The notes: a model not told the origin generated them from the sequence alone. 11,895 bases of DNA from Candidatus Thorarchaeota archaeon (GCA_038893995.1 JAWAQK010000064.1:1-11895); one strand, 5' to 3'; shown: positions 2,181-5,063, numbered from the stretch's first letter. Numbers and translations: made by a program.

Positions 2181-2242
2181 TAGACATCATCGCCTTGAGC
2201 ACAGCGAGGCTCCACTGAATACAGAGCCCAGCAGTTACAGAT

Positions 2243-2256
2243 AGTTTTATTCTTAG
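2243..2256. promoter_or_regulatory. AT-rich TATA-like element in the divergent rph / nucleotidyltransferase intergenic region
   Basis: agttttattcttag is the most AT-rich patch in the 115-bp gap between two divergent starts. Confidence 0.35.
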
Positions 2257-2295: not shown

Positions 2296-3330
2296 GTGCA
2301 GGTCAGGTTGGATATTAGAAAGAGATTCGCAGATGCCCTCGACGATACCGTGAACACCTGGAAGTCGAAGAAAGAGGTTGAGGGTCTATTTGTATATGGG
2401 TCCTATGTAAGAGGCACGATCACAAATGCCTCAGACCTGGACCTCTGTGTGGTCTTGAAAGAGGGCGAATGTGAATCGCAGTTGCTATCTGAGCATAAGG
2501 GAGTACGCATTGATATGACCTGCCTTACCTCTGAGGAGATCAAGAGGGTGTTCGATGGCAATGTCTCAGACCCAATCAAGATCTCCGAAGTTGTAGGTCG
2601 ACTGAGAAATGCTCAGATCGTATATGACAGGGGACATGATCTCAAGAAATGGGAGGAACTTGCCAGGCGATTCACGTGGAATCAGGACCATATAGACCTG
2701 ATGAAACAGAGAGCCCTCAACTCCCTCGAGCGGGCATCTAGATTCACAATTCGCGAGGACACCGTGAGTGCGGTCTGCGAGATAAGGAGAGCGCTCTCCG
2801 ACATTGGCAGAGCTATAGTGATGAAGAATGGCCGGTTCTCAATACTTCGTCCGGCGGAGGTCTTGAGCGAGATCAGACTACTTGACCCAATCACGTACCA
2901 AGTATTCTTGAGGACATTCAAACTCAAGAGTTTTGATGATGAAGAAGAGCTGATAGGAGTACTCAGTGATGTACAGCACTGGCTCGAGATAGCTGAGGAT
3001 AGGTACCGGGAGGCAGGTAAGGCCGGAAGGATCACGGAAAATCTTGCTGCTGCTCAGCGACAATATCACGGAGCAGTGGGACTTACACTATCAGGCGATT
3101 ATGAACTCGCAGTCCTGGAGATGAGACATGCAATCTACTCATTGGCTGTTTCACTGCTGCTGCTAGACGGGAGCGGTGAGCTGGAGGAGATTGGCATCGG
3201 AGATGAGCTCAGAGAGAGAGAACCAGACTTCTACGAACAAATAGTTGTGGAGTACGGTGCCTTCGATTTCCAGTCAAAGGGAGTCGAACGCAGTATAGGC
3301 GAAGCAAGGTTCATTGCGGCAAGACTGTGA
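2296..3330 (+). CDS. Pol-beta superfamily minimal nucleotidyltransferase (MNT) fused to two tandem HEPN-like helical repeats
   Basis: GLFVYGSYVRGTITNASDLDLCVV gives an exact GS-x10-DxD (G35,S36,D47,D49), with a likely third Asp in RIDMT (D73). Residues ~131-238 and ~244-344 align at offset ~113 with a HEPN-like first-helix pattern (A-x6-A...(G)D(Y)..AV.E.R.A...G). GAGGTG at 2293-2298 suggests the real start may be TTG 2308. Confidence 0.85.
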   Translation: MQVRLDIRKRFADALDDTVNTWKSKKEVEGLFVYGSYVRGTITNASDLDLCVVLKEGECESQLLSEHKGVRIDMTCLTSEEIKRVFDGNVSDPIKISEVVGRLRNAQIVYDRGHDLKKWEELARRFTWNQDHIDLMKQRALNSLERASRFTIREDTVSAVCEIRRALSDIGRAIVMKNGRFSILRPAEVLSEIRLLDPITYQVFLRTFKLKSFDDEEELIGVLSDVQHWLEIAEDRYREAGKAGRITENLAAAQRQYHGAVGLTLSGDYELAVLEMRHAIYSLAVSLLLLDGSGELEEIGIGDELREREPDFYEQIVVEYGAFDFQSKGVERSIGEARFIAARL

Positions 3331-3388
3331 TCATTTGGAGTGCCCCTTCCCAATGTACAGAAATGTACTATCATATTGAAACAGGAGT

Positions 3389-3949
3389 ATGACCATGCGG
3401 GCGGAACAGCTGAGAATAGTGCACCTGACGAGTGTCAGGCTGACCAAGGAGAAACAGAGAATACTACTCAACGAATTTGAGAGATACGCAGCAGCCGTCA
3501 ACTTCACGATAAGGACCGCTCTGACGAAGCACTTGACTGTCGAAAAGCGGATCGAGGACGGGGTCGCTGACACGCTGGCTCAACGATATGGTGTAACGCC
3601 GGAATATGTGAAGGACGTCGTGAAGACGGCTCGAATTACTATAGCAAGATACCGACGTCAGGTCCTGCGTTCTCCGACTGTACGCAATAATAAACCATAC
3701 TTTGCACGGGGGACCGTGATACTATCTCCCCCGATGATACGATTTCAGGGACCGGTCCTAGTGTTTTCGACTACAGGGAATGCAATCCCAATACCACTTG
3801 ATGAAGCCAGCAGAATCAGAGAGGCCTCGACCATCCAGTGCATGAACGAGAAGAGGGCGGTCCTGGATCGAACAAGGCTGGTCTGGAATGAACCAGGGGT
3901 TCTCGGGATAACAGTCAGGATCTACCTCAAGGGGAGTGGGCAGCCATGA
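3389..3949 (+). CDS. Basic 186-aa protein resembling the N-terminal WED/REC lobe of TnpB/Cas12f, lacking RuvC and zinc finger
   Basis: An N-terminal strand is followed by LTKEKQRILLNEFERYAAAVNFTI (the TnpB-like T-x-E-x-x-x-x-L...Y-x-x-A-x-N helix) and a helical REC-like segment (LAQRYGVTPEYVKDVVKTA). Then come KPYF and a beta-rich WED-like run (VLVFST.GNAIPIPL...RLVW..PGVLGITVRI), which ends where RuvC-I (GxDxG) should start. 31 R/K versus 16 D/E. AGGAG at 3383-3387 fits ATG 3395 better than 3389. The CDS call is firm; the family call is moderate. Confidence 0.6.
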   Translation: MTMRAEQLRIVHLTSVRLTKEKQRILLNEFERYAAAVNFTIRTALTKHLTVEKRIEDGVADTLAQRYGVTPEYVKDVVKTARITIARYRRQVLRSPTVRNNKPYFARGTVILSPPMIRFQGPVLVFSTTGNAIPIPLDEASRIREASTIQCMNEKRAVLDRTRLVWNEPGVLGITVRIYLKGSGQP

Positions 3950-4013
3950 GATCAGTCCGCCAAAGCGATGAGCAAATCGAACGTAGGAGAGTCATGATGG
4001 TGGGTCTTTGGGG

Positions 4014-5063
4014 TCAATTCCTGGTGAAACTCTCGAATCGGCGACCGATCATACGTCGTCGTTTCGGGTCAAGCACAACTGCCATGGCCAATACTACTCC
4101 TGTGGCTGAGATGATGACGATAAGGACCGCGTAATTGGCAGTCTCCGTCAGGACAAGACCTTGTCGAATAGACAGTACCAGGAACGTTTCTGTGACATCT
4201 CCAACTATCTTCAGACTAGTCGCGCTACACTTGTCAGGCGTATCTTCTGTTGTATGCCAATATGACGGAAATGGTGAGTGCTGTATGATGTCCAGGGCAG
4301 GAATGCCCGCGTCGAGGAATGGCCGATGATCGTCCAGTATTGAAGCACCCCATGAATCTATGAATACATTGTGGTAGCCCATTCCATGCGCCAGTTCCCA
4401 AACCTTGTTCTGTAGAGATCGTGTTGATGACAGTTCCCGAAGAAGAGACAGATCGCTGGCCCCGACCATGTCGAGGAGTATCATTGCAGTTATCTGAGAC
4501 CGCTCAGAACTTGTGAGCGAGGATACATAGTGCGTGGAACCTCGGATCCACTCCCATCCGTCAAGATGCCCGCTGTCCTCTGCATCAAAGAATACCAACT
4601 TGACAGAAGACCGGACATCCACGGGTAGACACCGTGCGAGCTCGAGGAGTACAGCCACTCCACTGGCCCCGTCGTTTGCGCCCAAGACGGGCTGTGTTCG
4701 CTTCTCGGGGGAGGGGTCCCGGTCTGCCATGGGCCTCGTGTCGTAATGGGCTCCAACAAGAATGTGCGAAGACGACGATCCAAAGATTGCAACGATGTTG
4801 GAGCAGTTCACGCCACGATAGATGAAATACTGAAACGTCACATTCCACCCGGCGGACTCAAGAATGCTACCAATGAGCTGTCGACACATCTGAAGAGATA
4901 CCGATCCGGGTAGTCTAGGACCCAGTTCGCACTGTTGAAGGAGGTAGGCGTAGGCATTTTCCCCTGAAAAGGTGGGGGAATAGGGGACACTGTCTGTCAA
5001 TCCTGTGAAGAAGACCGTGAACTGGGGCAGGGTAATCAAGTAGACTATCAGTATGATCTTCAT
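4014..5063 (-). CDS. M28-family zinc metalloprotein, glutaminyl-peptide cyclotransferase (type II QC)-like, with signal peptide and C-terminal membrane anchor
   Basis: Motifs GAHYDTR, GANDGASGVAVLLELAR, FFDAEDSG, LLDMVG, DDHRPF and YWHTTEDT. The N-terminus is hydrophobic (MKIILIVYLITL). The C-terminus has a TM segment YAVLIVIISATGVVLAMAVVL followed by KRRR. Confidence 0.88.
   Translation of the reverse strand: MKIILIVYLITLPQFTVFFTGLTDSVPYSPTFSGENAYAYLLQQCELGPRLPGSVSLQMCRQLIGSILESAGWNVTFQYFIYRGVNCSNIVAIFGSSSSHILVGAHYDTRPMADRDPSPEKRTQPVLGANDGASGVAVLLELARCLPVDVRSSVKLVFFDAEDSGHLDGWEWIRGSTHYVSSLTSSERSQITAMILLDMVGASDLSLLRELSSTRSLQNKVWELAHGMGYHNVFIDSWGASILDDHRPFLDAGIPALDIIQHSPFPSYWHTTEDTPDKCSATSLKIVGDVTETFLVLSIRQGLVLTETANYAVLIVIISATGVVLAMAVVLDPKRRRMIGRRFESFTRN

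Follow-up and report, generated by a model that had tools for sequence, protein, structure and literature searches.

All Cas12 enzymes descend from TnpB, and TnpB has been domesticated repeatedly. The exapted TnpBs that we found in the searchable literature all retain a RuvC domain, if only a degenerate one, together with a guide RNA. Inactivated TnpBs and TnpBs truncated at the C-terminus are described in a survey of TnpB exaptation, and even the most reduced of these lack RuvC-III only (PMC10691335). In TldR, the duplex containing the transposon-associated motif (TAM) lies in the groove between the REC and WED domains and the scaffold of the guide RNA runs along RuvC and WED, and in the binary complex with RNA only the RuvC helices are ordered on the RNA (10.64898/2026.09.22.753285). 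Here we describe a gene at positions 3395–3949 of an 11,895-bp contig from a Candidatus Thorarchaeota archaeon (GCA_038893995.1, JAWAQK010000064.1), whose product is probably a domesticated TnpB-type fragment, a non-cutting nucleic-acid binder with complete WED and REC domains and no RuvC or TNB. We refer to this gene and its product as the lobe gene and lobe protein, and to the entire contig (C64; the assembly totals 2.33 Mb and is 91% complete) as the window.

Like the TnpB of ISDra2 (PDB 8H1J, 8EXA and 8BF8), the lobe protein has WED and REC in the same order and keeps the N-terminal motif. Unlike the TnpBs of IS200/IS605-type elements, it lacks RuvC, the lid and the TNB zinc finger, its locus has no omega-RNA, insertion-sequence (IS) ends or tnpA, and its gene is not mobile but inherited vertically as a single copy. 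Cas12f enzymes (AsCas12f, SpCas12f1 and OsCas12f; PDB 8J12, 7WJU, 8DZJ and 9I8Y) are the best structural matches (Z 14–16, query-normalised TM-score (TMq) about 0.7), and the resolved WED and REC domains of the second protomer in a Cas12f dimer are about the size of the whole lobe protein, but the locus has no CRISPR array and the protein no nuclease half. The fliC- and oppF-associated TldRs and other exapted TnpBs share with the lobe protein that they are immobilised, kept by the host, non-cutting and linked to a conserved neighbouring gene. However, TldR retains a degenerate RuvC that holds an adjacent guide RNA, whereas the lobe locus has neither the RuvC/TNB half nor an adjacent guide; the host of the lobe gene is an Asgard archaeon, whereas that of TldR is a bacterium. 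By the features that define them (RuvC, TNB, an adjacent guide, an array and mobility, none of which is found here), the lobe protein is neither a TnpB nor a TldR nor a Cas12f, and its gene is a more reduced TnpB derivative than the TldR-type ones described. A search of the full-text literature, with subscription journals outside its reach, returned no description of a stand-alone TnpB lobe without RuvC.

Fold and domain boundary

In its longest reading, the lobe gene is an uninterrupted open reading frame (ORF) at 3389–3949 on the plus strand, stop included, which encodes 186 amino acids from the ATG at 3389. The ATG at 3395 is the likelier start (184 amino acids), because its spacing from an upstream AGGAG fits better and because the public record P0002, which is 100% identical to residues 3–186 of the window protein, is 184 amino acids long. 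Residue numbers below count from 3389. The protein is very basic, with an isoelectric point of 10.63 and 31 lysines and arginines against 16 aspartates and glutamates; the family median isoelectric point is 10. The gene is laid out as follows.

3384–3388, plus strand: Shine-Dalgarno-like AGGAG, 6 nt before ATG 3395 and abutting ATG 3389
3395–3949, plus strand: coding sequence of the nuclease-less TnpB-like protein, preferred start 3395 (184 amino acids), stop TGA at 3947–3949
3407–3433, plus strand: predicted first WED β-strand (residues 7–15), from AlphaFold2 (AF2) secondary structure, aligned to the Cas12f/TnpB N-terminus
3446–3688, plus strand: predicted REC helical bundle (residues 20–100), which holds the TnpB-type motif L-T-x-E-K-Q ... 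Y-x-x-A-x-N
3698–3928, plus strand: predicted main part of WED (residues 104–180), with β-strands, two short helices and a final β-hairpin
3950–4013, no strand: spacer before the convergent M28 peptidase gene, with a length of 64 bp that accommodates neither RuvC/TNB nor an omega-RNA-sized gene

The AF2 model built from a 42-sequence alignment has a predicted local distance difference test (pLDDT) score of 91.6 and a predicted TM-score (pTM) of 0.86; a model built from the single sequence is unusable (pLDDT 32.7). In the alignment-based model, a β-strand leads into a three-helix bundle, which is followed by a β-rich domain that closes with a hairpin. When this model was searched against the PDB with Foldseek, all 24 matches at E ≤ 1e-3 were Cas12f or TnpB (best E 1.1e-7, TMq 0.69–0.70). 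The top match in VIA-align was the Cas12f chain 9i8y_A, on which 176 of the 186 residues superimpose (Z 15.9, root-mean-square deviation 3.6; model 6–186 on chain 3–218), and ISDra2 TnpB (8h1j_A) aligned over 166 residues (Z 12.0; model 5–186 on residues 1–181). A Foldseek-independent search of 48,161 representative chains placed Cas12, TnpB or Fanzor chains at every rank from 1 to 30 (Z 14.2 to 7.3), and the first unrelated chain reached Z 6.9 over 91 residues only. Sequence identity to the Cas12f structural matches is just 10–12%.

The protein terminates 6 residues past the final WED hairpin, and model residue 186 pairs with residue 181 of ISDra2 TnpB and with residues 215–218 of Cas12f. Pfam gave no RuvC match (PF01385) in the protein, and only 64 bp remain before the convergent gene. 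The TNB/zinc-finger family PF07282 has no match in the protein or anywhere in the 91%-complete assembly, and on this ground we rejected a split gene whose RuvC/TNB half lies elsewhere in the genome. A vestigial RuvC-I aspartate is a less likely possibility: hhalign pairs Asp175 of the family (Thr in the window protein) with the catalytic RuvC-I aspartate of TnpB, whereas the superpositions end about 10 residues earlier. We lean towards the boundary suggested by the superposed models, which falls before the RuvC-I aspartate, over the hhalign placement.

These results bear out the first-pass annotation, which had read from the window's sequence alone an intact, basic 186-amino-acid ORF with a Shine-Dalgarno-like motif, a motif order fitting the TnpB/Cas12f recognition lobe, an end where RuvC would start and a 64-bp gap to the convergent M28 gene. 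It had also anticipated a structural match limited to WED and REC, and the match to Cas12f and TnpB is confined to those domains.

Beyond the Cas12/TnpB superfamily, the WED barrel is structurally closest to HIRAN domains (Rad5, Z 6.8; HLTF, Z 5.7) and lp_0118 (Z 6.9). HIRAN domains bind DNA 3′ ends, and the likeness may reflect a common barrel alone.

At the level of sequence, Pfam gave zero matches for the window protein and for all 42 family members. Whether queried with the protein or with its family profile, PDB sequences yielded chance-level matches only (a MAGUK protein, E 1.3; the VPS4 MIT domain, E 0.35), and the best that PHROGs offered was E 0.044 to phrog_130. TIGR01765, the N-terminal TnpB domain, matched 10 of the 42 members weakly and below threshold, with a best E of 4.7e-6; the window protein itself gave E 0.027 and 14.5 bits, against a curated cut-off of 47.25. 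Weak matches to the NCBIfam Cas12f2 model NF049972 were found in 14 of the 42. When the family was aligned with nine Asgard TnpBs by hhalign, columns 38–198 fell colinearly on columns 38–206 of 433 (E 9.4e-5, probability 59%). Matches outside the family in the genomes were also weak (E 3e-4 to 8e-3) and were to proteins of about 395 amino acids with Cas12f1-like_TNB and OrfB_IS605, which are true TnpBs. The closest homologues are short syntenic proteins and not the full-length, IS-associated TnpBs that the first-pass annotation had named as grounds for abandoning its proposal; full-length TnpBs appear only as the weak out-of-family matches. The named relatives are each a ‘hypothetical protein’ of Candidatus Thorarchaeota, save for a few metagenome-assembled genomes labelled otherwise. 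Within the family, 8 alignment columns are invariant and 23 nearly so; among the conserved residues are K22, Q23, Y33, N38, R99, K139, R142, R161, R163 and R177.

Distribution and selection

When 400 genomes of the phylum were searched in six frames, the lobe gene was found in 79 of the 85 genomes of the window's own taxonomic family, with no convincing score elsewhere. Orthologous frames are intact, encode 179–198 amino acids, end at the same point and are spread over at least 15 genera. The gene order RNase PH (divergent), nucleotidyltransferase (NTase), lobe gene and M28 peptidase is identical in 31 of 31 loci. A long form of 232–260 amino acids occurs in five genera (g3, g4, g7, g8 and g9; for example L045 and L046; P0005 and P0007); it carries about 50 inserted residues between REC helices and keeps its adjacency to the NTase gene. 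All carriers have a single copy except G327, in which contigs C82 and C67 hold two NTase–lobe pairs, one with a short lobe and one with a long lobe, owing either to duplication of the pair or to a mixed bin (contamination 6%). No form of 327–2000 amino acids was found in a word-indexed search, which is weak evidence, and an exhaustive phmmer search gave one, P0015. This metagenomic protein of 377 amino acids is extended at the C-terminus by 190 residues of helical repeats (motif RPWEVL...), which have no match in Pfam and are not RuvC.

Pairwise ratios of nonsynonymous to synonymous substitution (dN/dS) are 0.05–0.30 at unsaturated dS of 0.23–1.5; these figures are for orthologue pairs of the protein family, and the genome sample includes one genome of the window's genus. 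The maximum-likelihood gene tree requires 8 changes of genus label, which is the minimum (mean after shuffling, 18.8), and is therefore consistent with vertical descent. The lobe gene is thus kept under purifying selection and by vertical descent across one Asgard family of Thorarchaeota type, and, with intact orthologues in the same place in 30 other genomes and this range of dN/dS, it is more than a chance ORF. Conserved length and synteny, copy number that is nearly always one and dN/dS well below 1 are what the first-pass annotation had proposed looking for in a retained gene. Full-length TnpBs occur in 70 of the 85 genomes and behave there as mobile elements, unlike the single-copy lobe gene; a genome has anything between 0 and 45 PF07282 matches, and the window's has none.

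Non-coding elements at the locus

The 10-mer ATTGATTAGG (at most one mismatch) lies in the spacer ahead of the lobe gene in 29 of 31 loci, some 45–65 nt before the ATG of the conserved N-terminus. Between ATTGATTAGG and the ATG, the orthologues have a GTGG/GGTG-like ribosome-binding element 6–10 nt before the ATG. The 10-mer contains TTGAT, which we take to be the ISDra2 TAM. A role for ATTGATTAGG as an IS end, or as an operator throughout the genome, was rejected, because its 3–9 occurrences per genome are at chance level (reversed control, 1–9). The NTase gene has a promoter-like element of its own:

2239–2251, plus strand: promoter-like AGATAGTTTTATT, that is AGATAG(Y)TTTATTGA, upstream of the NTase gene by 44 nt in the window and by about 55–70 nt in most other genomes

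This AGATAG(Y)TTTATTGA element is conserved in most genera, the window included, and sits in the divergent spacer common to the NTase and RNase PH genes. Because the NTase gene has a similarly conserved promoter-like element, ATTGATTAGG is at least as likely to be an ordinary promoter as an operator. AGATAGTTTTATT may drive both the NTase and lobe genes in the window genome by read-through. Where the other loci have ATTGATTAGG, the window has ATGTAC-AGAA-ATGTAC (3353–3368, plus strand), a direct repeat of 6 nt at 10-nt spacing, and each ATGTAC unit contains the palindrome GTAC.

An adjacent guide (omega) RNA is absent at the locus: there is no room for it, no Rfam match and no consensus fold. 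Non-coding room beside the gene amounts to 58 and 64 bp in the window, and in the orthologous loci read, as judged from ORF calls, to 1–139 bp upstream and, in L001, about 20 bp downstream. Rfam gave no match in the window at E ≤ 1. A structured RNA after ATTGATTAGG, suggested by covariation apparent by eye in some subgroups, was rejected when RNAalifold on 25 spacers returned no consensus pairs. As the first-pass annotation had also noted, no tnpA-type protein is found among the window's ORFs, and a repeat search of the window found no CRISPR-like array or IS-end repeats.

Proposed function and candidate partner

The TnpB origin of the lobe gene is well supported. By analogy with TnpB and TldR, the basic REC–WED lobe would bind nucleic acid without cutting it, through the groove that in those proteins holds the TAM duplex and the adjoining heteroduplex. 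A canonical guide RNA is unlikely, because the surface of RuvC that anchors the guide scaffold is gone and in no genome is there non-coding room for a guide beside the gene; by the same comparison, the lobe protein most likely works independently of a guide.

Given a TnpB origin, we favour, tentatively and somewhat short of an even chance, a model in which the lobe protein and the NTase-like protein encoded upstream form a two-protein module, with the lobe protein as the subunit that recognises nucleic acid.

2296–3330, plus strand: MNT-type NTase gene, 344 amino acids, with a HEPN-like helical C-terminal part (Pfam NTP_transf_2, 7.6e-9)
3331–3388, plus strand: 58-bp spacer between the NTase gene and the lobe gene

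The NTase gene adjoins the lobe gene in 31 of 31 loci. Its distribution coincides exactly with that of the lobe gene: 79 of 85 genomes have both genes and the other six have neither. With its MNT signature G-S...D-x-D and helical C-terminal part, the neighbour resembles fused MNT-HEPN/KNTase-like NTases, and in the window it keeps the motif as G-S ... S-D-L-D. It differs from them in that one catalytic aspartate is not conserved across the family. Matches to HEPN are faint only, and seen in an orthologue; the Rx4-6H motif of HEPN shows no conservation among the NTase orthologues. When lobe protein and NTase were submitted to complex prediction, with alignments for both, the score was 0.50 (runs 0.50, 0.55 and 0.50), against 0.01 for the best control. 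At least 77% of contacts are shared between runs, and partner pLDDT is at least 84. A WED–REC lobe working with an MNT/HEPN-like NTase might constitute a new machine, in which nuclease and guide have been discarded, WED and REC alone still recognise sequence or structure, and nucleotidyl transfer or regulation is perhaps directed to specific sites in RNA or DNA. We regard this arrangement as possible but doubtful. No pairing of an MNT-HEPN/KNTase-like NTase with a TnpB lobe was found described in the literature. Also given a TnpB origin, the next option, which we think rather unlikely, is a plain DNA-binding regulator; in this version the lobe may act in other genomes at ATTGATTAGG, before its own gene.

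Several observations weigh against the domesticated-fragment reading, or against the NTase as partner. Homology to TnpB at the sequence level is modest, as the hhalign probability of 59% and the want of a Pfam match indicate, and the case is made mainly on predicted structure. The window's own copy is diverged. Its branch in the tree is by far the longest (3.15; median 0.14), and it shares 34% identity with orthologues of other genera, compared with a typical 47% when NTase divergence is matched. At nine positions it departs from a residue common to 85% or more of the others (T70, Y88, V92, P96, E139, I143, I149, V165 and T175), with K139E, H88Y and R96P among the changes, and its spacer has no ATTGATTAGG within two mismatches. 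The frame is intact and the product still very basic; the function of this copy may have shifted or relaxed.

Synteny extends over the whole neighbourhood, so the linkage to the NTase gene is suggestive only and does not count as independent evidence, and the six genomes that have neither gene are incomplete (65–88%). In the one genome of the sister family, an NTase homologue of 29% identity occurs without a lobe gene, with a small membrane protein next to it instead, and the NTase therefore does not need the lobe. One of the two DxD aspartates of the NTase is replaced in about one third of the orthologues, and from these replacements the enzyme may be inactive in about one third of genomes. 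As to the complex prediction, the mark is reached by 58 of 80 solved complexes and by 2 of 110 mismatched pairs, and scores of 0.60 or less while passing were obtained for 7 of the 80 solved complexes and for both passing mismatches; by the tool's calibration, the in-silico support for a lobe–NTase complex is weak. Among NTase orthologues L001, L005, L007, L012, L019, L023, L025 and L031, the first aspartate is T or V in four and the second is N in the other four.

Alternative explanations

The fold is that of the recognition lobe of RNA-guided enzymes, and the protein could accordingly resemble TldR or Cas12k, as an RNA-guided DNA binder that has no nuclease and represses target promoters, with its guide encoded elsewhere or within the coding sequence. 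In asymmetric Cas12f dimers, what is resolved of the second protomer is essentially WED and REC (7wju_B, 200 residues; 8dzj_B, 197 residues; target-normalised TM-score (TMt) 0.65–0.66), and such a lobe can therefore be resolved alone within a guide RNA–DNA complex. However, TldR holds its guide scaffold along RuvC and WED, and RuvC is missing from the lobe protein; moreover, there is little adjacent non-coding room, no Rfam match and no consensus RNA fold upstream. We consider a guided binder improbable. More improbable still is a dominant-negative decoy that keeps IS200/IS605-type elements in check by competing with active transposon TnpBs for the TAM or for omega-RNA. A lobe that has lost its nuclease has the obvious shape of a competitor, and full-length TnpBs are both common and variable, with matches in 70 of the 85 genomes and up to 45 of them, but the lobe gene is kept where no TnpB is found (G000, G320, G323, G327 and several others), and it is single, vertically inherited and unlinked to IS elements, whereas the TnpBs of these genomes are diverse in length and type.

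A resemblance to TnpB that is convergent, or an artefact of modelling imposed on an unrelated family of small basic proteins, would fit the absence of Pfam matches in 42 members, the insignificant PDB sequence searches, the hhalign probability and the poor single-sequence model. Nevertheless, 176 of 186 residues are matched, domain order and domain-in-domain topology are both preserved (one WED strand, REC and then the rest of WED), the match recurs over about 30 superfamily members with nothing else close, and the independent sequence signals agree, which makes this explanation very improbable. Least probable of all is a truncated IS relic that decays neutrally and is still open by chance. 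The long branch of the window copy and its loss of conserved residues and of the upstream motif are what such a relic would show, but orthologues with the same end are intact in at least 15 genera, with dN/dS of 0.05–0.30 and 8 invariant columns, and neither IS ends nor tnpA is present in the window. For the family as a whole, the relic explanation is already refuted by dN/dS.

Implications

More broadly, if the lobe gene is the domesticated TnpB fragment that we propose, then a stand-alone lobe under selection across an Asgard family would show that the two halves of the enzyme are separable in evolution, and would imply that WED and REC together have a useful activity of their own. The lobe protein offers a natural minimal module, of about 180 amino acids, for asking what a TAM-reading lobe does without RNA and RuvC, and it bears on the role of such a module in archaea of the lineage related to eukaryotes. 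At present the family is annotated as ‘hypothetical protein’ only and is invisible to Pfam.

Genomic surroundings

The convergent ORF at 4014–5063 on the minus strand encodes Peptidase_M28 (Pfam, E 5e-38). The remaining genes of the window are of housekeeping type: those for RNase PH, the MNT-type NTase, a geranylgeranyl reductase and a GNAT acetyltransferase, together with genes for a purine/uridine phosphorylase, an endonuclease III-like glycosylase, a cupin, a flavodiiron-type protein and a hemerythrin/PAS protein. In L001 and L002, a convergent gene for a 298-amino-acid WD40 β-propeller (8561–9457 in L001) lies between the lobe gene and the M28 gene, and the spacing in other loci suggests that they also carry a WD40 gene there. 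In the window genome this gene has been lost or moved, and the 64-bp spacer stands in its place.

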